64,000 nt of DNA from a virus (lineage: Duplodnaviria > Caudoviricetes): the IMG/VR virus record IMGVR_UViG_3300027566_000003. The stretch is one strand, 5' to 3'. The number at the start of each line of letters is the position of its first letter. Within the stretch, counting starts at the first letter, position 1. The translations under genes and the position numbers were made by a program. This document shows, piece by piece, positions 20,661-46,985 of the stretch. The notes below the pieces were generated by a model, which was not told where the DNA came from, ran no database searches, and saw nothing but the letters and a program-made list of their open reading frames with translations.

Positions 20661-21209
20661 TTATTTTAGTATTGTTACAGTAGCGGTTGTAACTCCAAAT
20701 ATATTTGCCATTTTAGTAGACTTTCTGAAATCACCAATAAACAAATCGATGTGGTTATTTTTTATTAAACCACCTTGATCCAATGCATAATACACATTAT
20801 TATACTTTGTATATTTAGGATCATTAAAAACAATTTTTACTTTGCTGCCAGTTGGGATAATTTTAGGATCTGTTGAAATTACTCTTGCTGAAGATAATGT
20901 ATGCCCTTTTAAATCAAATCCAGAACTAGTGATACCATACTGTGAATTATTTCTTGATTTCTGACAAGATTGGTAAGACAAGTCATACGCCGACACTATG
21001 ACTTCAATTGATGGAATTGGTTTCTTTGTAGTATAATGTTGCGTTTTATGGATTTCATTAATTGGAAAATTTGTTTTAAACTTATATTTCTCTGTTTTAA
21101 TATTGTTTTCAATAATATTATGATTACCTGCTTGACTAACAACTAAAGTAGTGAAGATACACACAAAGATTCCGAATCTTCGTGCTGTGATTAGTTTAGT
21201 TTTCTTCAA
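20661..21209 (-). CDS. secreted/membrane-anchored 3D-domain cell-wall protein
   Basis: N-terminal hydrophobic segment; SAY, STDPKIIPTGS, ALDQGGLIKNNHIDLF (three Asp). Confidence 0.85.
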   Translation of the reverse strand: MKKTKLITARRFGIFVCIFTTLVVSQAGNHNIIENNIKTEKYKFKTNFPINEIHKTQHYTTKKPIPSIEVIVSAYDLSYQSCQKSRNNSQYGITSSGFDLKGHTLSSARVISTDPKIIPTGSKVKIVFNDPKYTKYNNVYYALDQGGLIKNNHIDLFIGDFRKSTKMANIFGVTTATVTILK

Positions 21210-21861
21210 TTTTAGTTTCCTCTTTCGTATGTATTTTATTTTTGTTTGATTAGTTGAAATATAAGAGAGAAGGGGCTATTGCCCCATATATTCAATTTTT
21301 CTTTTAATATAATCATCCATCGTCATTCCTCCTTTTATTATTTCATATTTAAATGGACATTTTTTTATCCCCATCTTATGCTCTTTAATCATTACTTCCA
21401 TAATATCAATTTTTTCTATATGGAATTGTATACCAAATTTTATTTTAATTCCCTTATCTCGGAGAACATGCAAACATGTGATTGCATCTAATTCGCTAGA
21501 GTATGTATAAAATCCATTTATAAGCTGTTCTGAAGAAGAATATATATCTTGCTTAGTGATTTCGTCAAATGTAATAGAATTTATCCCCACATAATTCCCC
21601 TTACTGTCCTTAAGCGCATACTCTTCTATTTTCCTCATTACATCTTCTCCTCTTATTTTTATAGTGAAACCAAAACACTTGTTCCTTTCTACACATTGTT
21701 TTAGAACTGTAGTTCGTTCTATGTGTACATACATTATCCCACCTTTCATACTTAATATCAACTTTTTCTTTCCCCTTTATTAGTCAGTCTTTCGACAAAA
21801 TATTACTTTTTAACTAATTTTATTTTTTACCTTATGACAATTTTAAATTTTGGTTAGGGAA

Positions 21862-21891
21862 TCTAACCCCAAATATTACTTTGGGGTTAGA
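21862..21891. repeat. perfect 12-bp inverted repeat with 6-bp spacer overlapping the stop codon of the recombinase-fold gene
   Basis: TCTAACCCCAAA-TATTAC-TTTGGGGTTAGA. Confidence 0.85.
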
Positions 21892-22859
21892 CTACTTTTG
21901 TAACTGTCATACATTTCCTTTAAAGAGTTGCCATTTCTTTCATCCAATTCTAAATTCCTGTATAGTTGTTTAAAGTGATCCGGCTTCAATTCCCCTAATT
22001 CTTTCTCCATTGATAAGCATTTATCTAATAAACCACTTTTAAATATAAGAGTTGGTGTTAAGAACTTTACATTTAAATAACTTCTAAAATTTCTAAATCT
22101 TGAACTAATATTTCCTGGAGTCATTCTATCATCATCGCTAAAGAATACGTCCATAGACCTAATAATAAAGGGGGTATCCTTTAGTGGTAAAATAGAAAAT
22201 GTGTCTGTTGCATCACCATTTGATTTATGATAATATTCTTCCTTAGATGCTGCTATTAGGATATCCATAGTTCTTTGATCCACTTGAACTTTTCTTGGTG
22301 AAGGATTTTTAATTAAGTCATCGGGGTCTTTAATAACATTCACTATATTAAATTCTGGAATAAGATCAGTCTTTTTGAGATTTCTTATTTCTTCATAGGA
22401 AAATCCCTCTTTAGTTCTGCCTCTTATTCCTTCGTATAGTAATGCTATTAATGCTTTGTCAACGTAGTTGTGGAGTCTGTTGCAGTAGTCATACATTTGA
22501 TCTCTTGAAATAAATGAATTTTTTTGAGCAACTTTATGGATGTATTTTTTTAAGTCTTCCTTGTTGACTAGTTTCAAAACATTCATTGAAGAATAGTGTT
22601 TATCCAAACAGCACCAGTCTAAATATTGCATAATAATTGCATAAGCTACACCCATTGATCTAAGAGATTTCTTTTTCATTCCAATTAATAAGTCTTTAAT
22701 TTCTTCGTAACTAAAACTACACAAATCTTTATCTAGTTCATACTCAAATCTTCCTACGCTTCTTAAAATAGAAGTGTTTGTTGATCTGGTTGATTCATTT
22801 GGATATTTCTCATTTAAGAAGCAATTTTTACGATCTTCATTAAATAATTTATGATCCAT
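21876..22859 (-). CDS. tyrosine-recombinase-fold protein, probably a repressor similar to SPbeta YopR/MrpR (SroF)
   Basis: SAM-like N-terminus, LLYEGIRG box I Arg, TPTLIFKSG where HxxR is expected; 327 aa from the RBS-supported ATG; follows a YopQ-like gene. Confidence 0.65.
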   Translation of the reverse strand: MDHKLFNEDRKNCFLNEKYPNESTRSTNTSILRSVGRFEYELDKDLCSFSYEEIKDLLIGMKKKSLRSMGVAYAIIMQYLDWCCLDKHYSSMNVLKLVNKEDLKKYIHKVAQKNSFISRDQMYDYCNRLHNYVDKALIALLYEGIRGRTKEGFSYEEIRNLKKTDLIPEFNIVNVIKDPDDLIKNPSPRKVQVDQRTMDILIAASKEEYYHKSNGDATDTFSILPLKDTPFIIRSMDVFFSDDDRMTPGNISSRFRNFRSYLNVKFLTPTLIFKSGLLDKCLSMEKELGELKPDHFKQLYRNLELDERNGNSLKEMYDSYKSSLTPK

Positions 22860-22860
22860 T

Positions 22861-24210
22861 TTATTGAACCTCCCATTGAGCAACAATAGATTTAAAATAG
22901 TCAGATATTTTATCCATTGTTTTTTTGTTGACATTGTTTTCAATACCAATTTTCTTCCAAATATCGTTTGTTTTGCTAAAGTCTAAAGTTTTTAATATTT
23001 TAGTCAATTGATTTTTCCAATCATCACCATATTTTTGTTTAACTAATTCACCTAAAACAACATATCCAATAAACATATTGTTTGATGAAACATATGAATT
23101 CTCTCTCGCTTCAGTTAATTTACTGTTAAAAGATTCATAATTTACACCAATACAAATATTAAAAAGTTTTATTAAAAACTCTTCTACATTTTCTGACTCT
23201 GTAATAGGTAAATTTTTTAAATCATATACATAATCAATCGTTTTTGACAAAGTGTCAAACGTAACTAGTTTATTTTCAACTTTTAGCTCTTGTTCATTTA
23301 ATCCAATGCGGTTAAACATTTCATTTTTCTTTTGCTTTTCATTAATTGATCTTGCAGTTAACATATTAATATTGCTAGAACTTTTATACTGGATGGATTC
23401 CGGTGGGATGGGTGCTGCCAAACTTTCTTGTTCAATTATTTCATTCGCTCTTTCTTCTGTAACATGATGAATATAAATACTAGTTACCCTCTGAATGTCC
23501 TTACTTTTTTCAATGCATTTTAGCATTCCCCCTGTCCGATTTGCTCCGTCAATTATGTCCACTGACGTAGATATACCATCAGGTTCAATTAATAAGGTTC
23601 TTGCTTTACTATCATATTTAAATTTCTGAATGCCTTTTATCTTGCGTATATTCCATGTTATGGCATTGGGGCAAAACGTATTATTTAACATAGAGTTGGC
23701 GATTTCAGCAACTTTATCTGGGTCAATATCAATGGATTCAATTATTTTGTTTCCACTTTTCCTTTTCTGGAGTGGTCTTTGGGTGTTTGGGTTATATGTT
23801 AATAATCCATTTCCCATATACAAACCAATATTTTGATAAGTTTCTTTTGTACACAACCATTGAGACTCGCTGATTTGGTCAACATTGTGTAACATAATAT
23901 ATTTTACTTTTTCTTCTTCGGTTTTTTGATATGAATCTGCATATGATAATTCAATATCAGTAAACCACTCATTTGGCTTGATTTTTAATTCATGTGTAAA
24001 TTCATAAAGATGTTTTACAAATAAACATAATTCATTTTCTGTGAGATATACTAATGGAGTTACTTTGGTAAATATACCAGTAGTTCTACCTCGACTAATT
24101 CCTTTTTCAATCAACTTAGAAATAACCTTTTCTTGAATCTTAGTATCAACTGAATATTCTTCGACGATTAAATCTAAAACATCTTCAAGTTTTTGACGGT
24201 CTTGCTTCAT
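22861..24210 (-). CDS. DndB/ParB-like (DGQHR-type) protein similar to SPbeta YopQ (SroE)
   Basis: YNPNTQR, PNAITWN and IIDGANRTG motifs; 449 aa; stop adjacent to the start of the next gene. Confidence 0.6.
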   Translation of the reverse strand: MKQDRQKLEDVLDLIVEEYSVDTKIQEKVISKLIEKGISRGRTTGIFTKVTPLVYLTENELCLFVKHLYEFTHELKIKPNEWFTDIELSYADSYQKTEEEKVKYIMLHNVDQISESQWLCTKETYQNIGLYMGNGLLTYNPNTQRPLQKRKSGNKIIESIDIDPDKVAEIANSMLNNTFCPNAITWNIRKIKGIQKFKYDSKARTLLIEPDGISTSVDIIDGANRTGGMLKCIEKSKDIQRVTSIYIHHVTEERANEIIEQESLAAPIPPESIQYKSSSNINMLTARSINEKQKKNEMFNRIGLNEQELKVENKLVTFDTLSKTIDYVYDLKNLPITESENVEEFLIKLFNICIGVNYESFNSKLTEARENSYVSSNNMFIGYVVLGELVKQKYGDDWKNQLTKILKTLDFSKTNDIWKKIGIENNVNKKTMDKISDYFKSIVAQWEVQ

Positions 24211-24239
24211 GTTTATTCCTCCTTGGATATTAATTTAAT

Positions 24240-24290
24240 TGATACATGTAATTTGTATCAATATGTATCAATATGTATCAATATGTATCA
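24240..24290. repeat. operator-like array: four TGTATCA at exact 10-bp period plus one inverted copy
   Basis: TGTATCA at 24254, 24264, 24274, 24284; TGATACA at 24240. Confidence 0.9.
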
Positions 24291-24297
24291 TAATTAT

Positions 24298-24326
24298 ATT
24301 ATATAATAGTATAAACAAAAAAGCAA
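24298..24326 (-). promoter_or_regulatory. sigmaA-type promoter for the yopQ/yopR-like pair
   Basis: TTGCTT-17 nt-TATAAT immediately upstream of the repeat array. Confidence 0.6.
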
Positions 24327-24427
24327 GATATAATTCACTTAAAGATATATGTTATTTGATTATGTTTGGTCTTGTTTTGTTGTGTTGTTATTGGTTGGAT
24401 GGATTTTGGTTTAAGGGTATCGTTGTC

Positions 24428-25135
24428 TTAAGGTTTTTGTTTTGAGTCTAGTAAGGGATAGATATAATTATAACCTATATTAGAAATACTTAGCAACTCT
24501 AAAAGTAAACCGAAACAACTTGATATGACAATTATTTTTATATTAAAGAGCAAGAAGATGGTCATTAATACGGCCCATATGGATAAATAATATAATGACC
24601 ATCGTTTAAATTTATGACGTTCTAATTGTTCTGCAATTGGTTTATTTGGCGTGTCTCTTGGAATATAGCGATAAACTATATATAATGTCATAACAACACA
24701 AAAAATAAATAAATACCAAATTCCTAAAAATGGCCAATATTGGAGAGTGTATTTTACTATTAGCGATGTTGTAATGAATTGAATTAAAGATATTACTGTA
24801 CATTTATTATATGTTTTAAAATGATATCCACCTGCCATTGGTCTTAAAGACATAAAAGTTAAGACTACTACAATGGCAGGTGAAAAGACTCCCAAGATTA
24901 ATGACAACAATACTAATAATAAACCTTTAAATACCGCACCAACAGGAAACATGAATGCTAGACTATATACGCTTATAAGTTCTTCAGTGGTTTTTATTTT
25001 TTTAATATTAAACTTATGAGAGAGTTGTGGAAATACCCCTGCGATCCATCCCCAAGCATATTCAATTTGATCTAATGGTACTTTCTTTACCATTTTATGA
25101 GCTAAATTATTTGATATAATTTGAATTAGATTCAT
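24428..25135 (-). CDS. agrB: accessory gene regulator B (AIP-processing membrane peptidase)
   Basis: LRPMAGGYHFKTYNKC catalytic His/Cys motif, YIPRDTPNKPI, multiple TM segments. Confidence 0.92.
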   Translation of the reverse strand: MNLIQIISNNLAHKMVKKVPLDQIEYAWGWIAGVFPQLSHKFNIKKIKTTEELISVYSLAFMFPVGAVFKGLLLVLLSLILGVFSPAIVVVLTFMSLRPMAGGYHFKTYNKCTVISLIQFITTSLIVKYTLQYWPFLGIWYLFIFCVVMTLYIVYRYIPRDTPNKPIAEQLERHKFKRWSLYYLSIWAVLMTIFLLFNIKIIVISSCFGLLLELLSISNIGYNYIYPLLDSKQKP

Positions 25136-25151
25136 TTAAACTCCTTTCAAT

Positions 25152-25943
25152 TTAGGCAAATGCTACTTGCCTCCCTGTATTATAGTTATTTTGATATTGA
25201 AATGTTTTTTGTGTTCTCTCTTTGTTAAAAGTTTCTAGAACTTCAATAGCAAACTTTTCAGGAACATCTAAAGGAATATATCCGTCTGCCTTACCAAGTC
25301 CAACGGCAACTTTCATCATTAATTCTTTCGAACATTCTGCTACTTTTTCTACTACTCCTGATCCTGAAATTAATCTTCTTTTACTGATTGTGTCTTCTAA
25401 TTCACAACAAATGATAGAATCACATCTTAAACCATGCTCCTTTCCTATAAAAACATGAGTCGGTAATGGCGGTTTACTGCCTACACGACTAGTTATTGCT
25501 AAAACCTTTGTGTTACTACTGAATAAATTACCTTTTGGATTTTGCACCACGAGCACAGGTCGATGTCCTATCACCTCTGAATCAATCCCACTGTCAGAAA
25601 AATTACAAAAATATATTCCTCCACGTTCTATTTTTATATTTCTAATTTTTTCTAAATCATTATTTGTATAATTAGAATATCCACAAGCCAAAGTCAAATC
25701 CTTAAACGAAACTCGCCCTTGAGAATTATCAGAAATTACCTTTAGAAATGTTATATCTGGGTATGTAGACATTTTAGTCTTAATTACACCCTCCATATAA
25801 TCCCCGCTAACCTTACAATCTGCTGCAAAATTATCAATTGATCTATTACCTTTTGCAAGTATAACGTAATTTGCAAGTTTCTTAAAATCTTTTTTAGCAT
25901 TTTCCTCAGTATTAGATTTCCTAGTAATTAATTTGTTAAACAT
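25152..25943 (-). CDS. XRE-like HTH domain fused to a PemK/MazF endoribonuclease
   Basis: N-terminal AKGNRSIDNFAADCKVSGDYM helix pattern; C-terminal RGGIYF...HRPVLVVQN...LAITS...LPTHV. Confidence 0.85.
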   Translation of the reverse strand: MFNKLITRKSNTEENAKKDFKKLANYVILAKGNRSIDNFAADCKVSGDYMEGVIKTKMSTYPDITFLKVISDNSQGRVSFKDLTLACGYSNYTNNDLEKIRNIKIERGGIYFCNFSDSGIDSEVIGHRPVLVVQNPKGNLFSSNTKVLAITSRVGSKPPLPTHVFIGKEHGLRCDSIICCELEDTISKRRLISGSGVVEKVAECSKELMMKVAVGLGKADGYIPLDVPEKFAIEVLETFNKERTQKTFQYQNNYNTGRQVAFA

Positions 25944-26004
25944 ATCAATACACATCCTTTTTATTTTTAGTAAGATATTTCAATATTCGGTATTTAATAA
26001 TATA

Positions 26005-26034
26005 ATTATATCTTACAATGGATATGTATGTCAA
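26005..26034 (-). promoter_or_regulatory. sigmaA-type promoter for HTH-mazF and agrB
   Basis: TTGACA-18 nt-TATAAT. Confidence 0.65.
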
Positions 26035-26072
26035 TATATATTTTATTTTTTGTCATTACATTATTTTATGAT

Positions 26073-26100
26073 TATAGGGAAGACCGTAGCCTTCCCTATA
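26073..26100. terminator. 10-bp stem hairpin just downstream of agrD
   Basis: TATAGGGAAG-ACCGTAGC-CTTCCCTATA; lacks a clear U-tract, so it may be a stabilising stem. Confidence 0.55.
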
Positions 26101-26112
26101 TGTAATATGAAC

Positions 26113-26232
26113 TTATTCGAAACATTTAAGGGTTTCTGGTTGATAACTCCACATTGCGGAAGCTAAACATAAGGAACATACTGTAGCAATTGTGATAAGA
26201 CATCCTGCAATAATAGTATATTTGTTTTTCAT
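26113..26232 (-). CDS. agrD: AgrD-type cyclic autoinducer prepeptide MKNKYTIIAGCLITIATVCSLCLASAMWSYQPETLKCFE (39 aa)
   Basis: GGAGGTG RBS, TAATG overlap with the upstream gene, hydrophobic leader, xxxWx-YQPE motif and charged tail; near agrB. Confidence 0.88.
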   Translation of the reverse strand: MKNKYTIIAGCLITIATVCSLCLASAMWSYQPETLKCFE

Positions 26233-27062
26233 TAGAATTCACCTCCTTTTTCATTAATTTTTACATCATCCATTACTATATCCTGCGTAGCAAGATTTTC
26301 GTATGTCTGGTGTATTCTTTTTTCAACTTTTAGGATATAATTAACTATTAATAATATAAATGTTATAGTAATCGTCGGGATAATAAACATCATAACTACT
26401 ATAATTAATTGTTCAAAAAACGATAAATTTATTAAAATTAAATCTATTCCTATTAGTTTAATTAAGTAAATCATTGTAATCATTATACCTATCAATAAAC
26501 TAAACATTGATCTTTTTAAGAAACTATTTTTTAGTATTATATCAAATAACTTAATTTTTACATCTTCACTTTTTTTTACTATTAAGTATGTCAATATAGA
26601 ATATTCTATTACTCTTGCTGGTAATGAACATAAAAAATTCAAAATAAAGTTGGAGTTTATGTATAAGATATTTGTTTTTGTGAGAGATAATATTAACGGG
26701 TAGTAGCATTCTAATATTGAAATAATGAAAATTCCTAATATTGTATAAAACAATGCTTTAAAGTATTTAATCTTCTCTTGAAGTAAATTATTATTTTTTA
26801 TAACAACTAATGTTAATAAATATAATACTAGTATACCAGTTATTTGGGCAATAGATTTTGAAATATTTGTTAATCTTGCAAAACTTATTATAAAAGACAT
26901 TCCAATTGCTGGTAAAGCGACCCATTTTATATTATCTTTCCACATTCTGATATCTAATAAATCATCTCTACTTATACCTATTAATACTATTGCTACAACG
27001 AACAATTCTTCTGGTAAACTTACTAAAAACATGTTTAATAAGGCATTAATTGTACTTTGCAT
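26232..27062 (-). CDS. polytopic membrane protein, AgrC-sensor-like but without a histidine kinase domain
   Basis: Several hydrophobic segments, short cytoplasmic tail, no HisKA/GHKL motifs; translationally coupled to agrD. Confidence 0.55.
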   Translation of the reverse strand: MQSTINALLNMFLVSLPEELFVVAIVLIGISRDDLLDIRMWKDNIKWVALPAIGMSFIISFARLTNISKSIAQITGILVLYLLTLVVIKNNNLLQEKIKYFKALFYTILGIFIISILECYYPLILSLTKTNILYINSNFILNFLCSLPARVIEYSILTYLIVKKSEDVKIKLFDIILKNSFLKRSMFSLLIGIMITMIYLIKLIGIDLILINLSFFEQLIIVVMMFIIPTITITFILLIVNYILKVEKRIHQTYENLATQDIVMDDVKINEKGGEF

Positions 27063-27080
27063 ATGTATCTACTCCCTATC

Positions 27081-27144
27081 TCTTATTATTTATCTTATTA
27101 TTTATCTTAGGATAATTATACCATATGCAAAGTATATAAGTCAA
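27081..27144 (-). promoter_or_regulatory. promoter for the receptor-agrD unit with downstream direct repeats
   Basis: TTGACT-18 nt-TGgTATAAT; TCTTATTATTTA twice plus TCTTAGGATAA at 27081-27115. Confidence 0.65.
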
Positions 27145-27153
27145 TAAATAATT

Positions 27154-27717
27154 TTATATTTTGTTTATTATATGTATTTGGTTGGACGCTTTTATGGAAT
27201 TGTAAGTAATTATAAATACAAACGATCTGAATATTAAATCCCCTGGCGACATACAACACCATCCGAAATCCCACACATCACAAAGCGGTATCATTTTTGT
27301 AAATTCATCTCCCATTATATGATAGTCTCCATACGGTAATGCTTTAACAAACATATCATGTTTTGCATATCCAGTTGCCCATGAGTTAGAAAAAAATACT
27401 GGCATTTTCCCTGAATTAGCTCTTATTGCAATTGTATTAAGTATACTACCTATCCAAACAAGAGGAATAAAACAAAAATATAACTTCATTTTATTATAAG
27501 ATATCGCCAATAATAAGAAACAACTTAAATAAACAGTTTTAAATAAATATGTATATTTAACTAAAGAATAATCACCTTGCCAAATTGTCGATTCAAGATA
27601 AATGTATAGAAGCACCATAAACATAACAGGGTAAATACTCCATTTTTTAAAAATAGGAAGTATTTTATAGTTATTCCATTTGGCAACTAAAAAAGATAAG
27701 AAAACAGTTTCAATCAT
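27154..27717 (-). CDS. DUF5317-like membrane protein
   Basis: GSILNTIAIRANSGKMPV and LCD...SPGDLI motifs. Confidence 0.7.
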   Translation of the reverse strand: MIETVFLSFLVAKWNNYKILPIFKKWSIYPVMFMVLLYIYLESTIWQGDYSLVKYTYLFKTVYLSCFLLLAISYNKMKLYFCFIPLVWIGSILNTIAIRANSGKMPVFFSNSWATGYAKHDMFVKALPYGDYHIMGDEFTKMIPLCDVWDFGWCCMSPGDLIFRSFVFIITYNSIKASNQIHIINKI

Positions 27718-27764
27718 TCTATATTATTTTCTCCTTTATTATTTATTATTTTATTTATGTATTA

Positions 27765-29381
27765 TTACGGAGGTTCATCATCTTTTTTAATCATATTCTC
27801 ATAGTCTACCAAATACATCCATCTATAACCTTTTGCAAACTCACGAACTTTATTAGTATCTGATCTTATCCTCTTGGTCAAACAACTACTAATTGCAGAG
27901 TTATTCGCAAGACCTAAATCTTTTGTTGCATCTCTCACAGAATTATATTGTTTAACAAATTTATAATCCTTAGATAAACAAATAATTTTTATAGTTCCTG
28001 TTTGATGATAATCATCTGGTTTAATTAAGATATTGTTCCAAATTGAATAACTTATAGCACCTTTAGTTGCTCCTACATATTCAGCAACTTCATCAAAATT
28101 ATAACCATTATCTAATAATCTTTGTGCTTCTTCTACGTCCCAATCTCTTCTTGTATTTTTACTATCATCAATATATTCTGGCATTTCTTTAATATATGGG
28201 AAAAACATCTGTATTGCTTCCAAAGGAGAATAATCTCTGTGGTCTAAATCTATGTAATTATATTTATTATCTATTGCAAATTGCTTTTTAAGTTTATCTC
28301 GCGCCATATGTATTTCATCATCATGATATTCGCTTTGACATTCTATTAATAGATTTAATCTTGGAACATAAATATCATATTTGCTTACACCATTTTTATC
28401 TGTTCTAAATCCTATATCATATTCCCATTTTGTATCATGATCTTCATGCTTAAATACTTGTTTAAGCGTTGTTGCCATTCTAGACTCTACTTTTTCTCTT
28501 ACACATTCAGGACATCCAAAATTACAATTTTTTGCACTATATATTATTTGTGGATAATCTTCATGTTTACACTCTTTACATTTCCACCAAACTTTTGTAC
28601 TGCTTCCTGGGGTATATTCATATGGAGATTTATTATTTTTATCAGACCAAATTTCTATTGTTTGAGGATATAAATATCCTAAACTATCATATTTATGTAC
28701 TTTTACACGCGAATTACAATACCCACACCTCCCTCCACTAATAAATTCTCCGCAAAGAATATCATAACTCCCATGGTAATCTTTTTCTTGGCATTTAATC
28801 CAAACTTTTCTATTAGTATATTTAGTGTATTTAAAAGGGTCAATTGTATTTTTATCATAGTCCCAATATAATTCTAACGCAGTAACACCAAACGAATCTA
28901 TTAAAAATTGTCCAAAACTATCTTTAGGATGTACAGAATTTTGTCCTTTACAATAACTACATCTATTACCTCTTATAAAATCCGAACCACTAATTTGATA
29001 ACTTCCATGATAGTTTTTCTTTCTACAAAAGATATAAAATTTTTTGTAATTATTATAATTAATTTTCCAAGGATCAATGCCTAATTCATTATTCTTCTCA
29101 TAATCCCAATATTCTTTAAGAAAATCTTCTCCTAAATTATCTATCCCCCATTCTGCGAATGTATAACACAATCCACAACTACTTTTAGATTTTCTATTTA
29201 TAATACCAGAAGGACTGACTAACCAATCCTTGCCGCACGTACAAGTATGTAGTATTTTAGTATTAGCACCAATATATTCAACTCCTTCTTTTAACTTTAT
29301 ATTTGTATCATATTTTAAATTATATTCTTCTAATTCTTGTTTATATTGTTCTGTTGTCTTCTTATTAGTTTTCTTAGTCAA
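27765..29381 (-). CDS. free-standing homing-endonuclease-like protein (repeated zinc ribbons, PD-(D/E)xK-like nuclease, C-terminal NUMOD1-like domain)
   Basis: Repeated KVWxKC...H...C..C units, YDIYVPRLNLLIECQSEYH, KQYNSVRDATKDLG. Confidence 0.7.
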   Translation of the reverse strand: MTKKTNKKTTEQYKQELEEYNLKYDTNIKLKEGVEYIGANTKILHTCTCGKDWLVSPSGIINRKSKSSCGLCYTFAEWGIDNLGEDFLKEYWDYEKNNELGIDPWKINYNNYKKFYIFCRKKNYHGSYQISGSDFIRGNRCSYCKGQNSVHPKDSFGQFLIDSFGVTALELYWDYDKNTIDPFKYTKYTNRKVWIKCQEKDYHGSYDILCGEFISGGRCGYCNSRVKVHKYDSLGYLYPQTIEIWSDKNNKSPYEYTPGSSTKVWWKCKECKHEDYPQIIYSAKNCNFGCPECVREKVESRMATTLKQVFKHEDHDTKWEYDIGFRTDKNGVSKYDIYVPRLNLLIECQSEYHDDEIHMARDKLKKQFAIDNKYNYIDLDHRDYSPLEAIQMFFPYIKEMPEYIDDSKNTRRDWDVEEAQRLLDNGYNFDEVAEYVGATKGAISYSIWNNILIKPDDYHQTGTIKIICLSKDYKFVKQYNSVRDATKDLGLANNSAISSCLTKRIRSDTNKVREFAKGYRWMYLVDYENMIKKDDEPP

Positions 29382-29412
29382 TATTTAATTTATTTCCTCC
29401 TCTTTATTTTTA

Positions 29413-29820
29413 TTATGCATAAACTACACCATTTTTATTTCTTAATTCTACCAATCCAAACTGTATACCGATTCCTCTATCAATTCTTAACATAGTTTCC
29501 TCATCGCATTGTCCTATTTTTTCTTCAATCAAATCTCTCGTGACTGGCATGGACTGTTCGCAGAGAGCAATAGAATCCATTTTTAGGCCAGAATTTCTAC
29601 TGATGGGTATATGAGTAGGTAATTTTGATTTTGTGGTCACAGAAGTTAAAGGACATATATGTAGTACATTGGAATATTGATTACAGGCGTTGTTGCTAAT
29701 TATCACTACGGGACGCTTAAATTGTTGGATAGATCCATTACTGTTGGGAAGATTTGCAATATAGATATCGCCCCTCTTAATCTCTTTTTGAGCTTGAACA
29801 TTATTTATTGTTTGTTTCAT
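29413..29820 (-). CDS. PemK/MazF-family endoribonuclease
   Basis: KRGDIYIANL...KRPVVIISN...ICPLTS...KLPTHI; no MazE-like gene adjacent. Confidence 0.9.
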   Translation of the reverse strand: MKQTINNVQAQKEIKRGDIYIANLPNSNGSIQQFKRPVVIISNNACNQYSNVLHICPLTSVTTKSKLPTHIPISRNSGLKMDSIALCEQSMPVTRDLIEEKIGQCDEETMLRIDRGIGIQFGLVELRNKNGVVYA

Positions 29821-29954
29821 AATACTAATCACTCCTTTTTATTTTCTTATGATTAGTATTATGACCAATAATTTGTCCAATATACCTATTATTTTATAAA
29901 AATTTTATTTATATTGTATAACTATTACTTGCAATCAAAATTACATTCTAATTA

Positions 29955-30347
29955 TTACCACCATAAACTATCCAAACACAAAGCAAACAAACTAACTACA
30001 TCATCAGCTTTCTCTTTTTGCGCATCTGTCATTTTGTATTCATCGATAGTTAAATAAATCTTTAAACCATCTAACATCCTATCAATACATTCTTGAAATG
30101 TAATTGTTTTCCCTTTGAACTCGTATTTATGAAAAGACGTATCAATACTATTTACTTCATTATACATAGATAATCTTTCATATAACCATAATTTAAATGT
30201 AAAATCCATCGACCAAGTTTCCTTTTCATCAAAACCATATATTTCTCTTTCTTTCGACCATTTCTCCTGTCTAGGATCATCTTTATTCCAACCTTGATGA
30301 GTATTATCCTCTTTTATACCGATGTCTTTAAGATATTTGCCTAACAT
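29955..30347 (-). CDS. hypothetical phage protein
   Basis: ORF with RBS. Confidence 0.65.
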   Translation of the reverse strand: MLGKYLKDIGIKEDNTHQGWNKDDPRQEKWSKEREIYGFDEKETWSMDFTFKLWLYERLSMYNEVNSIDTSFHKYEFKGKTITFQECIDRMLDGLKIYLTIDEYKMTDAQKEKADDVVSLFALCLDSLWW

Positions 30348-30411
30348 TTAATTATCATCCTTAAATATTAAATCCTTTAAAAAACTTGTTTGCTAGGATT
30401 GTTTAAATAAT

Positions 30412-30607
30412 TTACAATAATCTTCCCATACATTCATTGCAAGTATTTTCTATATATTTAACAATTTCACTATATGTCTCAAAACTTATTTTCTTGTTCT
30501 TCTCACAATTCTTACACTTATTAAGCGATCCTAATATAAAATTTACCTGTAATAATACACGTAATTTTATATATTCCCATTCTATCTTCAGTATTTTTAT
30601 ATGGCAT
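30412..30607 (-). pseudogene. GIY-YIG endonuclease remnant with a +1 frameshift at 30532
   Basis: GIYKITCIITGKFYI; the conserved GS follows only in the +1 frame. Confidence 0.55.
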
Positions 30608-30630
30608 GTTTCTCCTTTACTATTTATATT

Positions 30631-31155
30631 TTATAGTAATTGTAATCTCTTCACATACTTTTTCGCATCTTGTTTAAGCATAGGTGGCAATCCTACCACC
30701 GTAAGACTTCCATAAGGAATTTCGGTTAACCCATTATCCCTTATGTAATAAAACCCTGCGTCAATTAACTTCTCCAAATCCTTTTGTTTACCACGCAAAA
30801 TTATTTTCTTTTGATCTAATTCATACCATTGCCAAAATAATCCCCATCGTTTAAAACTATTTTCTACTGCAATTATTGTTGCAACATGAGCTACTTGGGC
30901 AGCAACCTTCCCTGGGCTTAGGTTTAATTCTGAATTCACGATAAAATATTCTACAATTTCAAATTCCTCTGGTTTAATAAAACTCATATTAAATTCCTCT
31001 TTACAATTAGGACAATTAAAATAACTACCACTAGAATTTTGTTCGATAGGTATGATGTCTACAATATCATATTTTTTAAATTGTTTTTTAGTTTCTCTAT
31101 TCCATTCTTCAGATGTTGATAACGCTCCGCAATTTGGGCATATGTATTTTTTCAT
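30631..31155 (-). CDS. pth2: zinc-ribbon domain fused to Pth2 (copy 2)
   Basis: N-terminal CPNC...CPNC; C-terminal part nearly identical in DNA to 17241-17579. Confidence 0.85.
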   Translation of the reverse strand: MKKYICPNCGALSTSEEWNRETKKQFKKYDIVDIIPIEQNSSGSYFNCPNCKEEFNMSFIKPEEFEIVEYFIVNSELNLSPGKVAAQVAHVATIIAVENSFKRWGLFWQWYELDQKKIILRGKQKDLEKLIDAGFYYIRDNGLTEIPYGSLTVVGLPPMLKQDAKKYVKRLQLL

Positions 31156-31851
31156 TTTTTATTTTCCTTTTTACTCCTTTAAATCTGTTCTTTAAGGTTA
31201 TTCAATAAAAAATTTTAGTTCAGGAAATGTCTCAATTGATAATATTTTACCTGCTAGTCTTACCCATTTATCAACCGCAATAGGATTATTCATATATACT
31301 TTATCTGGTAAATGCTCTGCCAATTCTAGAACTGCTTTTGCTAAGTCAATCTTTTCTTGATCCATTATGTTTAGTTACCTCCTATCTATCTGAACACTTT
31401 CTATTTCAGATAATCTATAAATAATACAAGTCTTATCATTTTCTAAAGCATTAAAATCAGTTTTACTATTTAACAACCAATCTTCAAAGAATTCTTTAGT
31501 TAATTTAGCATCGGGATAATTATGTACTACTCCGCTTTTTAATTGAATTTTTATCGCCATTTAAAATCACTCCTTTTTTTTGATCCATTAAAACTGTTTC
31601 ATTTATTTGCTTCTCTAAAAGCATTTTTAAGCATCTTAAGTTCCATATTTTGAATTGTTTTTGTACTTGGAAATAATATATTATCAACACAATTGTTAAT
31701 AAAAACTAAAACCTCTTTGTCTGTCTTATTTAACCATTCTTGATCCTCCATAATTGTAGCAAAATATTCCCTATAATTTTGAATAAATTCTTTCATTATT
31801 TTCACCTCCATTTGATTAAAATAACTCTTTTGAGAGAGTTGTATTTTTTTA

Positions 31852-32610
31852 TTAGTCTTTCCCTGCAAATTCCTTATAATATTTCTGTCTCATTTCCTCT
31901 GCTAGTACCCCTGCTTTTTCTAAATCGTCAAACTTAAACCTACCAAAACATTTGCTCTTACCTTCAATTTGTAAAACTACAAACCATCTCTCATCTTTCT
32001 TATTCCAAAATACATTTCTATGTCCAGAAGTATTGTTTTTATTTTTACCATTTTGTCTATTTTTAAGATTTAATGAATTACTAGTACATCTCAAATTATC
32101 TTTACAATTCTTTAATGAATCTCCGTTCTTATGATCAACTTTTATATTCTTGTCATTAACTCGCATAATTAATTTAGTTAAGGCTAAATTTCTAGTCATA
32201 TATTTTTTAGTTGCAATGTCACAAATAGTTAAAGTTGTAGTTATATAGTATCTTCCTCTATCTAATCTTGCAAACCATGATAAATCTTTTACTAAATCTA
32301 ATTCTTCAGTATCTATTTCAACATCTATCCTTCCTCCTTTCTTACTATTTACAATCATTATTGTTTTATCACTATTAACTATATATTCATTTCTTGTAGA
32401 TTTAGGTTTATATGTATTGATGTCATTTACTTTCCTATTTAAATATTCTTCATTAACATCAAATTTCTCAGATAAAATCTTTAAACATTTGTCAGGTACT
32501 TTTTCTCTTCTAAACCAATCCCATATAGTACCAGGACTTACTCCAATTTCTTTAGCAAAATTAGTAATATGAATGTCTCTATCTCTAATTAACTCTTCAA
32601 ATCCAATCAA
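31852..32610 (-). CDS. XRE-HTH + HNH + AP2 homing endonuclease
   Basis: FAKEIGVSPGTIWDW; VDHKNGDSLKNCKDNLR; SGHRNVFWNKKDERW. Confidence 0.85.
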   Translation of the reverse strand: MIGFEELIRDRDIHITNFAKEIGVSPGTIWDWFRREKVPDKCLKILSEKFDVNEEYLNRKVNDINTYKPKSTRNEYIVNSDKTIMIVNSKKGGRIDVEIDTEELDLVKDLSWFARLDRGRYYITTTLTICDIATKKYMTRNLALTKLIMRVNDKNIKVDHKNGDSLKNCKDNLRCTSNSLNLKNRQNGKNKNNTSGHRNVFWNKKDERWFVVLQIEGKSKCFGRFKFDDLEKAGVLAEEMRQKYYKEFAGKD

Positions 32611-35600
32611 TTATTATATTCTCCTTTTTCAGTATAAAACATCTCTCGAAGTGTAATAATATCTTTCCTTAATACTTCTTTAGTTTGATGCCTTAACCAT
32701 CCATAAAACTCATTAGCTAGAGGTGTGGCTAAAGAACTAGTATATTTAGTATATCCATTCCTAGAAACGTCCTCTTTAACACTTCTCATATGTTTCCAAA
32801 AACCATAATACTGCAATTTTATTTTAGTCATAAATCCAACATTATCTTCTAAAACAAATCCTTCGATATATTGCCCCTTATATTTATAGTCATCTGCGGT
32901 TACTTCTTCATACCATTGATAGAATTCTCTCCAATTATCTAATATCTTTGCTTTTACTTTCAAAGGTATATTATATTTATTTGAAAACAACTGTATTTCT
33001 TCATATGATTTTTTCTTTGGTTCATTGATATCATTCTCTACAATTTCTAATAATACTAAATGAGGGAAAATATATTTAATCATATGAGGATCATTAGTGG
33101 GATCAATTACTTCAAATACTAAAGTTGATTTTTGTTCTTTGAGATATTCCTTTATCTCTGATTGCTGGTCTAGAGTAAGAGTATCATTAAATATATCTCT
33201 AAAATATCCTGCAAATTCACTATTAGGATTTGATTTTGAGCTAATTAATAATTCATCTCGACTAGAATCATACCCTACTAAACCTAAGAACCCATTGTAT
33301 TTTACCCATGCCGTTACAGGGAATTGGAATACATTTTTAAGATTATCTAGTTTGACATTCTCTCTTTGATTGACGTTAAAGAATTTTTCATAGCTACGAG
33401 CTACCACTTCTCCAGTTTCAATATTAAAAAATAATCCTCTCGCTTTTATAGTTTGTTCATCCCATATATTTTTATAGAATGCATCTTTTGTAAAATTAAA
33501 AGAAGATATGTGACCGAATTTAGATTCTCTGACATATCTATTCGCTCTTAGTTTCTCTATTAATTCCATATTAGAAACTACAATCTCTTCGGATTTAATT
33601 GATTCAATTTTCTCTTCAATAGGCTTAAAGATATTATTTTTAACCTCAATAGTATTAAATCCTTTGTCATCTAATGTGACAATCCTTAAGTACCCTCCAA
33701 ACTCACATTTTCCTTCGAGGCAAAAACATCTTTCATTGATTTGAATTGGAGAATCTGCCACGTTCCTATGACCGTGGATTTGGTAATAATTATTTGGAGT
33801 TGAATTAAGAAATCTACCATTGACCATTTCCATTTCTTTATATTCTCCAACTCCTTTGATCAATTGTTCTGTGGCAAGAAATTCAAATCTTTCTGGTATT
33901 GTACTGATACCACCATGAGTAACAACTACTACTTTATTATTATATGTATAATATGCCAACTGTCTTAATTTTCTATAGAATATTCTTAATTTCTTCTTAT
34001 CTATTTGCAATTTATTCAACTCTCTTTTGGTAACTTGCTCAAATTCTTTACTCTTTGTTGGCATGTCGTTAGAATAGTCCCACAAATGACAATTACCAGT
34101 AATAATAACCCTACCATCAAGTCTAGTAATCAAAGTTCCTTTAGACATTGTGCAACAATAAGTCAAATTATTATATTCTTCTTCCGTAACCGTTACTGGA
34201 TGGTTAACACTTCCATAATAAAATATACTCGCAACATATTGATATTTTCCATTAGAAAAACCACTTCCTTCTTTATAATCATATTTACAAATAATTCCGT
34301 TTTTTACGCACATTTCTTGAACAATATCTATATTTTGACTGTTAATTGTTCTCCACTCAATATTATTGGCTTTTAAATATCCGTCTGATTTTATTAATGT
34401 ATCTAAAAATATAGACACTTGTCTTTGATTAAAGTATTTCCATTCGTTAGGTATTAATCTTTCATTATGTATTTTATTGAATATATCTCTAGCATATTCT
34501 CCATATATTCTTATGTAATAGGGTTGTACTCTATTTAAGTCACTCATTTTTGCTTTTTGAAAAGTATAAGGTATGTCCATTCTATCCAACAATTGCTTAA
34601 CACTTTTTATTTTTCTTTCTTTGCTAAATTTAAATTGGATTCTCTTTTTAATAGAATTTGGATTACCTTTTATATTATCCACAATTGTAGAATCCATTAT
34701 TACCCATGTTAATAATCTAATCCAATCATCTTCTATATTAACTACATTATCATTTGTATACCCCCATAGAGTAAAATCACGTTCTTCTAAATTATGTTTA
34801 TTCAAAAGATCTTTTGCTTTAACTTTTTCTCCTTTATATATTATATCATGATTAGGCGTAACCTTATGTCTGATATTATGACTATTGAAATTGATTATAG
34901 TATTTGATTCTTTTTTAATTGTTTCAATTGGGTTATCAAAACTAATTTCTTTTGATATGAGGTCATATTGTGCCACCACATCTTCTTTTGTAATATTTTC
35001 TATAACTTTCCAGCCATCTTTTGTAAGTATTTCAGTTCCTTTTGCTAAACATTCATGGTTCCCTTGTAAAAATATCACATTTAATTTATCCATAACTGAA
35101 AACAAGTAATTAAGTAATTCTACATTCTCAATTCCTCGATCAACATAATCACCAACAAATACATATAGTTCATCTTCTTTTAATTCTCCACCTAAATATT
35201 CTTGCAAGACGGTATTACATCCATGCAAATCTCCAATATGATGAATCTTTTTATAATTAGAAAAATCTAAAGGTGAATATGTAATTGTGTCCCAAAATTC
35301 TTCTGGTTTAATAGCTTTTACTCCACTAGAAATCTTTTGAGACTCAAATCTAGCATACATATTGTCAATTACAAAATCATGCACTACTTTATAATCAGGT
35401 TTCCTATTTTGATTTCTTTCTTTACAAACTTCAATAGGAACATCTGTCATATCAACACAAATGATTCTGTATCTATATGTTTCTGCCATACTTTTATATC
35501 GATTTAATTCAACTGTTTTAGAATTAGTTGCATCAACAACTACAAATTCTCCACGAATCATTCTTTGTTCTAGAATATCAAATAACAATTCCCAAACTTT

Positions 35601-46196: not shown

Positions 46197-46985
46197 TTAT
46201 AAATATTTCTCGATATATTCCCTGTCTTGTGTAAAAATAGGAATATTTTCATCAATTACCCACCTGCTTCGCATAATCCCTTCTTTATCATATTGCTCTT
46301 TTACAATACAAATTCCACGCTTTTGATAAGTTGGCAAATCATTAAAGTTAATTTCTTTCTCTTGAAATAACATCTCTTGAATTTGATTACATGTTTTATT
46401 TTGTAGTTGTTTGTGACTAAAGTTTGCCTGACCAACCATTTGTATAGCATTCCTAGTTGCGTCTTGTTGTCTCCAAATAAAAGCGTTGCATACTTCCTCT
46501 TTTGGAATATTATAAACTCTACTATCAAACATTGCAGTTCCGACTCTTGAATAATATCTTTCCCATTGCCTACCTTCCTCGCCACTATTGACTTCAAGAT
46601 TATTTACTTTTTCTCTAAAACCTTCATTAAAAGCCATAGTTGCCATACTTGCAGAGATAGAAACCATCTTTTGTATGTTTTTATCAAACCATGCTTGAGT
46701 AGTAAGAGCATCGTAATCAGTAATTAGTAAAGTTATTTCATCACTTTGAGTATACGCAATTTTACAACCCATAACATTCTTACAAAGATACTGTGCTGTT
46801 TCCCACATACTATTCATTAATATCATATCAAATGGTCTTTGGAATCCTTTAGTGAATGTATGAAATGCTTTGCCATCAAGTCTGATTAATGTAGGCATTC
46901 TTTTTGTTAGATGTTTTCTCTCAATATTTTCATAACCCTTCATTCTATCTCCAAGATTATCTTTGCTCATTTTTATCTCCTCCAT
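46197..46985 (-). CDS. thg1: tRNA(His) guanylyltransferase Thg1-like protein
   Basis: RLDGKAFHTFT, AYTQSDEITL, FDSRVY, WRQQDATRN. Confidence 0.92.
   Translation of the reverse strand: MEEIKMSKDNLGDRMKGYENIERKHLTKRMPTLIRLDGKAFHTFTKGFQRPFDMILMNSMWETAQYLCKNVMGCKIAYTQSDEITLLITDYDALTTQAWFDKNIQKMVSISASMATMAFNEGFREKVNNLEVNSGEEGRQWERYYSRVGTAMFDSRVYNIPKEEVCNAFIWRQQDATRNAIQMVGQANFSHKQLQNKTCNQIQEMLFQEKEINFNDLPTYQKRGICIVKEQYDKEGIMRSRWVIDENIPIFTQDREYIEKYL

Follow-up and report, generated by a model that had tools for sequence, protein, structure and literature searches.

The locus considered here raises the question of why a phage should carry two MazF/PemK-family genes, neither with an adjacent antitoxin gene and one fused to a helix-turn-helix (HTH) domain and placed before agrB, i.e. 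whether they are ordinary toxin-antitoxin (TA) pairs or have a regulatory role. The window analyzed, i.e. the whole stretch of 64,000 nucleotides, is from an SPbeta-like phage of large size whose hosts are anaerobic Clostridia; all features located below are on its minus strand. The best explanation of the results is that both MazF genes are working parts of a lysis-lysogeny/communication module, and not a TA addiction pair.

A conserved agr-type cassette beside repressor genes

The two MazF genes are conserved parts of an agr-type cassette beside SPbeta-type repressor genes. The cassette runs short MazF, DUF5317 protein, ~270-residue membrane protein, AgrD, HTH-MazF fusion, AgrB, and adjoins, on their upstream side, genes resembling yopQ/yopR (SroE/SroF-like), a position occupied in phi3T by aimR-aimP-aimX. 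In all 10 loci found via homologues of the fusion (48-94% identity) or of the short MazF, the cassette lies beside DndB-like and MrpR-like genes. A MazF gene immediately precedes agrB in every locus examined, and AgrD-like and membrane-protein genes are still adjacent to more distant HTH-PemK fusions, even at low sequence identity; one locus (L006) is without the short MazF. The yopQ-like gene (22861-24210; DndB-like, 449 residues) has 25% identity to phi3T_96 (E 3e-18) and the yopR/SroF-like gene (21876-22949; MrpR-type recombinase fold, 357 residues) 29% identity to phi3T_97 (E 4e-21, 82% of the query covered). In the phi3T gene map aimR-aimP-aimX-92-93-94-yopP is directly upstream of yopQ-yopR; a tblastn search of the window with phi3T proteins recovered only YopQ and YopR, and no homologue of AimR, AimP, AimX, phi3T_92-94 or YopP.

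The preliminary description had the fusion and agrB sharing a promoter, which is borne out by a sigma-70 promoter (26005-26034; TTGACA, 18 nt, TATAAT) that matches the consensus at 12/12 positions and is the best within a 10-kb region, by the 16-nt gap, including a ribosome binding site, from the fusion stop to the agrB ATG, and by the lack of any predicted terminator in that gap. Most related loci have an alignable TTGACA-like -35 box. The inverted repeats in the promoter region are rich in A+T and do not clearly exceed chance expectation. The agrB product (24428-25135) is a PF04647 match (E 3e-33) in which the His and Cys of the GGYH...C motif are seven residues apart. The 39-residue AgrD-like prepeptide (26113-26232; MKNK...SAMWS-YQPETLKCFE) was read from the sequence; AgrD-like small ORFs are present in 8/8 loci, with a variable five-residue core followed by a conserved (Y/N)QP motif. 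Just 3' of agrD is a G+C-rich hairpin (26073-26100; a 10-bp perfect inverted repeat), terminator-like though without a clear U-run, which is conserved in eight loci with compensatory changes. The cassette proteins and 10 further large ORFs of the window, like the Pfam tracks of related loci, yielded no AgrC histidine kinase and no AgrA LytTR regulator.

The remaining cassette genes encode membrane proteins. That for a conserved polytopic protein of 276 residues (26232-27062), the stop codon of which overlaps the agrD start (TAATG), is present in 8/8 loci, with additional paralogues in L002, L005 and L013, and its product has no match in Pfam, PHROG or PADLOC. The DUF5317 gene (27154-27717; PF17248, E 2e-15), likewise in 8/8 loci, is directly downstream of short mazF in most of them. 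In this phage alone the two are parted by a gene for a 538-residue DUF4379 zinc-ribbon protein (27765-29381; PF14311, E 1e-19), probably an insertion; it is missing at this position in L001, L004, L007, L009, L015 and L017.

Two unequal MazF proteins

The fusion ORF (25152-25955, 267 residues) likely starts at Met5 (ATG 25943), as homologues begin MFNK. It comprises an XRE-fold HTH domain (residues 15-90), a linker, CGYSNYxNND (91-100), a MazF core (109-224), an extra helix (233-249) and a tail ending ...QVAFA, with the linker and C-terminal extension strongly conserved across the fusion family. Residues 110-220 match PF02452 (E 4e-18) with 66 bits, the curated cut-off being 23.1 bits; Foldseek aligns the MazF part with the MazF structures of B. 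subtilis, B. anthracis and S. aureus at TM 0.89-0.91, and it has 38% identity to B. anthracis MoxT. The short MazF (29413-29820; 135 residues from the likely start ATG 29820, with an alternative GTG at 29832, and ending ...NKNGVVYA) matches, as the ORF 29413-29832, PF02452 (E 1e-24, 87.3 bits) and MazF entries in the PDB (E 2e-19), its PemK fold being judged from sequence; its close homologues are confined to this cassette.

The claim that both proteins keep the catalytic Arg and Thr positions is sustained, equivalents of Arg25 and Thr48 (B. subtilis MazF numbering) being present in both and conserved within their families. What had been missed is that the two are not equivalent. The fusion has the full residue set, i.e. 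Ser19, Glu20, Arg25, Asn36, Thr48 and Glu78; its family (48-94% identity) keeps the DSE loop, Arg132, Asn143, Thr155/Ser156 and Glu185, with Glu20, Arg25, Thr48/Ser49, Asn36 and Glu78 invariant or nearly so. Within the family, Pro26 is Leu or Met in half of the members; the fusion has Asp at the Gly18 position, and Gln21 and Gln79 are variable. By contrast, in the short MazF, and throughout its clade, Glu20 is replaced by Ile and Arg85 is missing, although a second short-MazF subclade (L004, L007, P0079, P0089) retains both. In MazF-Da, G18, E20 and R25 are essential, the E20A substitution abolishing activity, and in MazF-Bs R25 and T48 are essential (PMC8634880). Lacking the Glu20 needed for activity in other MazFs, the short MazF may have reduced RNase activity or serve as a decoy; the active RNase of the pair is probably the fusion.

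Multimer modelling, which had been proposed as a check, predicts a MazF-type homodimer for the fusion with itself, with an ipSAE of 0.80 against 0.03 for the best control. The ipSAE mark is reached by 20/30 proteins solved as same-chain pairs and 1/23 solved as single chains, counts that apply only roughly here since the dimer run used its own alignment. Contact agreement between runs is at least 68% and partner pLDDT at least 76. In the model the interface is formed by the MazF core and the extra helix, and linker residues 101 and 104 contact the partner chain. As MazF dimers have already been solved, the score may in part reflect likeness to these.

The assignment of an XRE-like N-terminal domain stands with respect to fold and profile kinship, but not as a direct Pfam HTH match. 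The five-helix fold is of the XRE type, the top 50 PDB matches in Foldseek are all XRE-family proteins, and the SinR DNA-binding domain superposes with TM 0.81 and rmsd 1.5 Å, albeit with weak E-values of ~0.03. The domain profile reaches HTH_3 proteins (E 1e-12 to 1e-9) and phrog_18248, a transcriptional regulator family (E 2e-4). Pfam HTH families gave no match at E <= 0.01 to 24 fusion-family members, and a PDB profile search with the domain returned nothing relevant. No confident docking of the HTH domain onto the MazF core is seen in either the monomer or the dimer model.

Antitoxins, possible restraint and UACAUA sites

As had been stated, no MazE-like ORF adjoins either gene. Pfam searches found no antitoxin family among the cassette neighbors and no AbrB, RHH or MazE family among the 98 small coding-strand ORFs of the window, and no conserved ORF lies upstream of short mazF in eight loci. 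As far as recognizable cognate antitoxins are concerned, the view that these are not classical TA pairs holds. The term antitoxin-less applies only to recognizable phage-encoded partners, since a candidate host MAG (metagenome-assembled genome) carries a canonical alr-mazE-mazF locus, the MazE of which could act in trans; cross-neutralization between non-cognate MazEF pairs has been reported (PMC10893535). PADLOC matched no defence model. PHROGs classes phage MazFs as 'growth inhibitor' morons, and MazF-like genes are also present in unrelated large Lactobacillus phages.

The short mazF leader folds into a hairpin (29817-29864) with a 16-bp stem, the Shine-Dalgarno sequence in the loop and the AUG (29820-29818) in the 3' arm (dG -18.6 kcal/mol, z -6.4; none of 200 shuffles folds as well). 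A comparable hairpin is found in six of eight loci; pairing of the AUG is preserved in all seven aligned sequences, with compensatory changes at 5 of 14 pairs. With its start codon so sequestered, the primary transcript is probably poorly translated. The only antisense signal near short mazF is a weak promoter-like match.

Both proteins end in a common ssrA-like tail, N-[IV]-A-[YF]-A, which is present in 44/50 fusions and 16/20 members of the short clade, as against 2/100 other MazFs; among the 141 ORFs of the window, only the two MazFs have it. The tmRNA tag of a candidate host is ANDNLALAA. The tail is probably a degron, a reading suggested by resemblance, or a dock to a common partner; its presence on both toxins hints at a reversal of the usual stable toxin/labile antitoxin arrangement.

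UACAUA is the conserved cut site of Bacillota MazFs (10.64898/2026.08.06.743204). On the sense strand of the window TACATA occurs 80 times where 34.7 copies are expected, giving z 7.7 and rank 2 among 1845 hexamers, compared with 35 against 41.5 on the antisense strand. None of its single-base variants is enriched, and the copies show no preference for a codon phase; in ORFs of 120 residues or more there are 46 copies, compared with 19.1 +/- 4.2 once codons are shuffled. Enrichment is also seen in related loci (68 versus 34.5), whereas a Clostridium MAG chromosome of equal GC content is not (43 versus 54.8). The hexamer CACACA is even more over-represented than TACATA, for unknown reasons. The same UACAUA enrichment has been published for phi3T and SPbeta (10.1101/2023.04.27.537455), and, as in Bacillus, it could here arise from host MazF alone. 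The phage MazFs have only 34-40% identity to UACAUA-cutting MazFs, and the specificity of the fusion may differ from UACAUA given the Asp at Gly18 and the variation at Gln21 and Gln79.

The leader of the yopQ-like operon has three exact UACAUA hexamers (24254-24290), carried in TGATACATAT units spaced 10 nt apart, and a TGATACA/TGTATCA palindrome follows. The TGATACATAT array is unique within the window, and related loci do not share it as an array: L002, L004, L005 and L012 have a single UACAUA just after the -10 box, and four of the eight other loci have none. With its inverted copy, the array also looks like a DNA operator. The agrB, yopQ and yopR coding regions contain no UACAUA.

Proposed role and relation to known systems

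The preliminary description appealed to a connection of MazF with arbitrium-phage lysogeny, and this is real: in phi3T MazF activity promotes lysogeny, and the phage sequesters MazE (PMC10769878). The proposed regulatory RNase role has independent backing in the sense-strand UACAUA enrichment and the three tandem leader sites, while the activity itself we infer. The lack of an antitoxin gene, the position in a signalling cassette and the UACAUA-rich messages suggest that the RNases regulate gene expression of the phage itself, and we give about an even chance to their being self-limited regulatory RNases acting on phage mRNAs, i.e. a phage-encoded arbitrium MazF arm.

In such a scheme the fusion would be a dimer with two flexibly tethered XRE HTH domains, probably DNA-binding, the target of which would most simply be the fusion's own consensus promoter, so tying expression of the fusion and agrB to the fusion level. 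The short MazF would be restrained in cis, its AUG locked in the conserved hairpin, and the type found in the window, with Ile for Glu20, may have weakened or changed RNase activity, or act as a decoy for MazF or MazE partners. The common tail would probably make both proteins short-lived or dock them to a shared partner, such that control of synthesis and turnover would replace a labile antitoxin. The substrates would probably be the phage's own UACAUA-enriched transcripts, the leader of the repressor operon (yopQ/yopR-like) among them, and MazF activity would adjust both the expression of phage genes and the choice between lysis and lysogeny, in the way that host MazF acts for phi3T. By gene order, the AgrD peptide may be linked to one or other MazF.

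It may instead be, though we consider this rather unlikely, that the fusion is a single-chain TA protein, the HTH, linker or C-terminal extension neutralizing the MazF core in cis until triggered, with the short MazF a host-dependent toxin neutralized by host MazE. The role would then be prophage maintenance, superinfection exclusion or abortive infection, and the agr-cassette position would result from co-expression in lysogens instead of signalling. Examples of fused TA proteins exist and XRE domains are common DNA-binding modules of antitoxins (PMC2701414, PMC4826407), the conserved linker and C-terminal extension and the partner contacts of residues 101 and 104 in the dimer model would suit such neutralization, and the host mazE-mazF locus, the reported cross-neutralization and the PHROGs category are in keeping with it. 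However, a large census lists AbrB, RHH, MazF/ccd and XF1863, and not Xre, as antitoxin classes partnering MazF (PMC2701414), the models do not dock the HTH confidently on the core, and no PADLOC defence model matches. The persistence of the fusion at agrD/agrB or AgrD-like genes is poorly explained by hitch-hiking alone, and the strand-specific UACAUA enrichment points to phage mRNA targets.

The Ile at Glu20 and loss of Arg85 in the short clade, together with the inactivity of MazF-Da E20A, could alternatively mean that catalysis is not the point, with the fusion a transcription factor using its MazF domain only to dimerize or to sense a ligand, either RNA or peptide, and the short MazF a non-catalytic modulator, e.g. 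a host-MazE sponge that frees host MazF, like phi3T_93. The predicted core-plus-helix dimer would make a bivalent HTH protein, Pro26 is replaced in half of the fusion family, and phi3T itself promotes lysogeny via MazE sequestration; we nonetheless regard this combined reading as unlikely, as near-invariant active site residues are unexpected in a domain for dimerization only, and the second short subclade keeps Glu20 and Arg85. We find it more improbable still that the MazF genes are accessory cargo playing no part in the decision, and that the UACAUA enrichment reflects composition or some DNA-level signal independent of MazF. Morons are numerous in large phages, unrelated large Lactobacillus phages have MazF-like genes, and CACACA exceeds TACATA in over-representation; but the cassette order and repressor-adjacent position are conserved in at least 10 loci, and the enrichment is strand-specific, limited to the exact hexamer, independent of phase, robust to codon shuffling and absent from the host-like chromosome.

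Several known systems come close. The arbitrium-MazEF system of phi3T/SPbeta (AimR-AimP-AimX, YosL, phi3T_92/93 and host MazE-MazF) occupies the same genome position upstream of yopQ/yopR (sroE/sroF) and likewise combines a peptide-signal gene, phage transcripts enriched in MazF sites and a MazF-family RNase. It differs in that its MazF is host-encoded rather than phage-encoded and its peptide system is of the RRNPP type, rather than an AgrD-like peptide with AgrB; no MazE mimic was recognized in the present phage. Canonical Bacillota MazEF (EndoAI/EndoA) has in common with the phage proteins the MazF fold, at 34-40% identity, the (here predicted) dimer and the Arg25/Thr48 catalytic pair. The phage copies, by contrast, have no adjacent MazE gene and both have a C-terminal tail that canonical MazF lacks; one has an XRE HTH domain and an extra C-terminal helix, and the other the Glu20 to Ile change.

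The MazF-mx of Myxococcus xanthus is also a solitary MazF, recruited to a developmental or decision pathway and coupled to a DNA-binding regulator (PMC2701414), but that regulator, MrpC, is separate and encoded elsewhere, whereas in the phage the HTH domain is covalently fused. The C. difficile phage phiCDHM1 (PMC3901668) similarly carries agrB and agrD, yet with an AgrC kinase and no MazF; here a MazF precedes agrB, with no kinase or response regulator among the proteins tested. Finally, the stable 5' hairpin that sequesters the start codon of short mazF recalls the locked toxin mRNAs of type I TA systems, in which, however, the toxin is a small membrane peptide and the partner an antisense RNA, as opposed to a MazF RNase with a weak antisense promoter-like match.

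Conservation of the cassette and its position

In the window, which has a G+C content of 28% and carries almost all of its genes on the minus strand, the region begins in transcription order with the gene for a short MazF (29820-29413, -), followed by genes for a 538-residue DUF4379 zinc-ribbon protein (27765-29381, -), a DUF5317 protein (27717-27154, -) and a 276-residue membrane protein (27062-26232, -), the last joined via TAATG to a 39-residue AgrD-like ORF (26232-26113, -). A G+C-rich hairpin and a sigma-70 promoter (26034-26005, -; 12/12 match) then precede the second mazF gene, in which an N-terminal domain is fused to MazF (25955/25943-25152, -). The agrB gene (25135-24428, -) lies 16 nt downstream of this fusion, and two further genes come after it, one DndB-like and one with an MrpR-type recombinase fold.

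Full-length homologues of the fusion fall into about 50 clusters (48-94% identity), all metagenomic; one further homologue is in a Clostridium MAG, the single locus given by a scan of GTDB species genomes. Whether related phage loci were reached via fusion homologues (L001, L002, L004-L007, L009) or via short-MazF homologues (L015-L017), the cassette is present at every locus examined, in the order short MazF (where present), DUF5317, ~270-residue membrane protein, AgrD, fusion and AgrB, then DndB-like and MrpR-like genes. The short MazF is found in eight loci, is missing from L006 and is lost to the contig end in L002. In L017 (6001-9678) agrB has moved from behind the fusion to directly behind short mazF, so a MazF gene directly precedes agrB in all loci, with a gap of 13-28 nt. 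Even the distant fusions P0173, P0176 and P0178 adjoin a DndB-like gene as well as genes for AgrD-like and membrane proteins. Two homologues considered as split 'HTH-only' genes, P0051 and P0052, appear to be frameshifted or chimeric and come from very short contigs.

Some parts of the region vary. The DUF4379 protein, with three treble-clef zinc-finger repeats, is encoded between short mazF and DUF5317 only in the window phage; a different 300-residue gene holds this spot in L005, and a DUF7487 protein is encoded downstream of the fusion in L012. The pattern suggests an insertion hot spot used by mobile or homing-type elements. An extra paralogue of the ~270-residue membrane protein follows agrB or the fusion at L002:3389-4180, L005:8622-9473 and L013:1271-2092. 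In the AgrD-like ORFs (window 26113-26232; L001, L002, L004, L009, L013, L014) the five residues before a conserved (Y/N/H)QP vary, e.g. SAMWS, SFAFS, SYFWT, CFFWF and SWLWS; most of these cores start with Ser, not Cys, which would make the ring a lactone rather than a thiolactone. There was no match to the 9.4-kb region among phage genomes (megablast), to positions 21000-31500 in Rfam (E <= 0.1), or, at a usable level, to the 276-residue membrane protein in a language-model atlas; literature searches found no paper on DUF5317, or on an HTH-MazF fusion within a phage agr cassette. PHROGs does include a family of MazF-like 'growth inhibitors' from phages. Among listed sequencing runs, only a groundwater metagenome, perhaps the source of this DNA, contains the region in full, and no RNA run is listed as containing it.

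The 449-residue product of the DndB-like gene is homologous to phi3T_96 (yopQ), and the 357-residue MrpR-type protein to phi3T_97 (yopR/SroF). Immediately upstream of yopQ/yopR, phi3T carries aimR-aimP-aimX-92-93-94-yopP; in the window phage, a distant relative of SPbeta phages in anaerobic Clostridia, the cassette thus sits at the place of the arbitrium genes. No homologue of phi3T AimR, AimP, AimX, 92-94 or YopP was detectable in the window by tblastn.

Elsewhere, the window encodes a 1373-residue polynucleotide kinase-phosphatase/RNA-ligase-type protein (32607-36728, -) with intein-like insertions and 46% identity to SPbeta-group proteins. MazF cleavage yields 2',3'-cyclic phosphate and 5'-OH ends, which are handled by kinase-phosphatase/ligase RNA-repair enzymes, and a functional link between this protein and the phage MazFs is possible. 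Further RNA/translation-repair genes (30631-31155, -; 46197-46985, -; and one small ORF elsewhere) comprise two PTH2 peptidyl-tRNA hydrolases, one with fused zinc ribbons, together with a Thg1-like tRNA-His guanylyltransferase. A metallo-beta-lactamase-fold protein (56129-56863, -) resembles the anti-Pycsar protein Apyc1 at 47.7 bits, slightly below the cut-off of 50, and several DNA methylases, an NAD-dependent DNA ligase and an AEP primase-like protein are also present.

Structural and catalytic features of the two MazFs

The assignment of both ORFs to the MazF/PemK family, as made in the preliminary description, is borne out by solid PF02452 matches in Pfam (E 4e-18 for the fusion, 1e-24 for the short MazF). 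The closest solved relatives of both are MazF/EndoA proteins of Bacillus and Staphylococcus, and the two phage proteins share 34% identity.

The AlphaFold model of the fusion, built on an alignment of 48 homologues (mean pLDDT 78), has a five-helix N-terminal domain (residues 15-90), a linker (CGYSNYxNND) that is poorly ordered yet highly conserved, a MazF core (109-224) on which solved MazFs overlay at TM 0.89-0.91, an added helix (233-249) and a disordered tail. Direct Pfam and PDB-profile searches gave no relevant match for the N-terminal domain, and a language-model atlas gave weak HTH leads only (0.83-0.85). When the domain is folded alone, its top 50 structure matches are all XRE-family HTH domains (SinR: TM 0.81, rmsd 1.5 Å), albeit with E-values of only ~0.03, and its profile, searched against 1.8 billion representative proteins, retrieved HTH_3 proteins and more distant HTH-PemK fusions. 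The earlier suggestion that one MazF carries an XRE-like N-terminal domain is thus supported at both the fold and the profile level.

Multimer prediction, also proposed in the preliminary description, was run on the fusion homodimer and passed (ipSAE 0.80 versus 0.03 for the best control), with at least 68% contact agreement across runs and partner pLDDT of at least 76. Among proteins with known structures, 20 of 30 same-chain pairs attain this ipSAE mark, as does 1 of 23 single-chain proteins; these counts hold only roughly for the fusion dimer because an author-built alignment was used. Since MazF dimers have already been solved, the pass may reflect likeness to known dimers. The confident interface involves the MazF core, the added helix (231-244, with 239 against 239) and, from the linker, residues 101 and 104; neither HTH domain takes part in it. 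The fusion is predicted from this model to be a MazF dimer with two loosely tethered HTH domains.

An imperfect inverted repeat at 25970-26016 (GTAAGATAT ... ATATCTTAC) flanks the -10 box and transcription start site of the fusion promoter, and could be an HTH operator. Similar repeats span this box in several related loci. All are rich in A+T and do not clearly exceed chance expectation, and an HTH operator at the fusion promoter was not retained.

The two families differ at positions important in other MazFs. Fusions retain Ser19, Glu20, Arg25, Asn36, Thr48/Ser49 and Glu78, with Gly18 replaced by Asp; in the entire clade of window-type short MazFs Glu20 is replaced by Ile or Leu and Arg85 is lost, both residues being retained in a sister short-MazF subclade (L004, L007, P0079, P0089). 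In MazF-Da the G18A, E20A and R25A substitutions each abolish activity, and MazF-Bs depends on R25 and T48 (PMC8634880). On the basis of these residue differences and the published mutants, the fusion and the short MazF are unlikely to be functionally equivalent. The short mazF leader forms a 16-bp hairpin (dG -18.6 kcal/mol, z -6.4), with the start codon in its 3' arm and the SD in its loop. A similar start-codon hairpin occurs in six of eight loci; the AUG is paired in all seven aligned leader sequences, and compensatory changes are found at 5 of 14 pairs. A promoter-like match antisense to the short mazF start is weak and no better than the chance background.

Both families run past the normal MazF C-terminus, with N-[IV]-A-[YF]-A or Q-V-A-F-A as the final residues. 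The motif [AVS][FYCL]A(x)-COOH is present in 44 of 50 fusions, in 16 of 20 short-clade members and in 2 of 100 other MazFs, these two being cassette-type short copies; among 141 predicted window ORFs it is unique to the two MazFs. The tail is similar to ANDNLALAA, the candidate host's tmRNA tag, and we infer that it may be a degron or a common docking motif.

Distribution of UACAUA sites in phage transcripts

Bacillota MazFs, including those of B. subtilis, Listeria and S. aureus, cleave U^ACAUA (10.64898/2026.08.06.743204; also PMC11780869). Against a third-order Markov expectation, TACATA is enriched on the sense strand of the window (80 versus 34.7 expected; z 7.7; rank 2 of 1845 hexamers) and not on the antisense strand (35 versus 41.5 expected), and its single-base variants show no enrichment. 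The most over-represented sense-strand hexamer is CACACA (35 versus 9.6 expected). TACATA sites have no codon-phase bias and are 2.4 times denser in intergenic leaders than in coding sequence. Compared with within-gene codon shuffling, sense-strand counts in ORFs of at least 120 residues were 46 versus 19.1 +/- 4.2 for the phage window (z 6.5; 1.25 sites/kb), 68 versus 34.5 +/- 5.4 for related phage loci (z 6.2; 0.93 sites/kb) and 43 versus 54.8 +/- 6.7 for 160 kb of Clostridium MAG chromosome of similar GC (z -1.8; 0.34 sites/kb).

The leader of the yopQ/yopR-like operon has three exact UACAUA copies at 10-nt spacing, an array found nowhere else in the window. The agrB, yopQ and yopR coding regions have none, and each mazF mRNA has one. 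In related loci the repressor operon has a single UACAUA just past the -10 box in four cases and none in four. The window array may just as well be a DNA operator, since its TGATACA units close with an inverted copy; long operators of ~24 bp are recognised by phi3T SroF (10.1101/2025.11.27.690993). Other copies lie at 26104, immediately before the hairpin following agrD, and at 27067, overlapping the start codon of the 276-residue membrane protein (GAUACAUAUG).

Proposed role of the phage MazFs

Together these observations fit putative regulatory RNases targeting phage mRNAs, which would give the phage its own version of what host MazF does in the arbitrium circuit (PMC10769878). In place of an antitoxin, the putative brakes would be the fused HTH, predicted to bind DNA, the locked start codon and the degron-like tail common to both proteins. 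The fuller proposal, that the MazF arm of the lysis-lysogeny decision has moved into the phage genome under agr-type peptide control, is tentative and on balance improbable. An agr-type cyclic peptide would be sensed through kinase-less membrane proteins and would set the amount or availability of a putative UACAUA-cutting HTH-MazF and of a short MazF of decoy-like character. Phage mRNAs would be cut by both, the leader of the SroE/SroF-like repressor operon among them, and this cutting would decide between lysis and lysogeny. The resulting peptide-to-RNase route would lack both a two-component system and an antitoxin.

A main rival is that the fusion is a single-chain toxin-antitoxin and the short protein a host-MazE-dependent toxin, serving defence or maintenance. 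The initial observation that neither gene has an adjacent MazE-like ORF withstood several searches: Pfam found no antitoxin family among the mazF neighbour genes, and no AbrB/MazE, RHH, PHD or similar domain among 98 small coding-strand ORFs in the 64 kb; PADLOC gave no match for the six cassette proteins; and all-against-all comparison of eight loci found no conserved ORF upstream of short mazF, its only conserved neighbours being DUF5317 and the remaining cassette genes. A 130-residue gene upstream (29955-30347) was discarded as an antitoxin, not being kept in this position in other loci. With respect to a single-chain pair, a large comparative census found Xre absent from the antitoxin classes paired with MazF. 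With respect to the host, the Clostridium MAG with the sole genomic copy of the cassette also has a canonical alr-mazE-mazF locus, and thus host MazE could act in trans on the phage MazFs.

The other main rival is a chiefly transcriptional or decoy role for the phage MazFs.

If the regulatory RNase proposal is correct, control of phage genes through MazF would count as an ancestral and portable trait in this phage family, and the cassette as a natural case of a toxin-family RNase controlled without an antitoxin. The kinase-less agr cassette would gain a concrete, testable output, with UACAUA sites, above all the three in the repressor-operon leader, as testable targets.

In Bacillus SPbeta phages the arbitrium signal works partly via modulation of host MazF (PMC10769878). 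By contrast with phi3T and SPbeta, the window phage has its own MazF genes at the matching locus. The phages are alike in that their transcripts are enriched in MazF sites, an excess of the same kind having been published for phi3T and SPbeta (10.1101/2023.04.27.537455).
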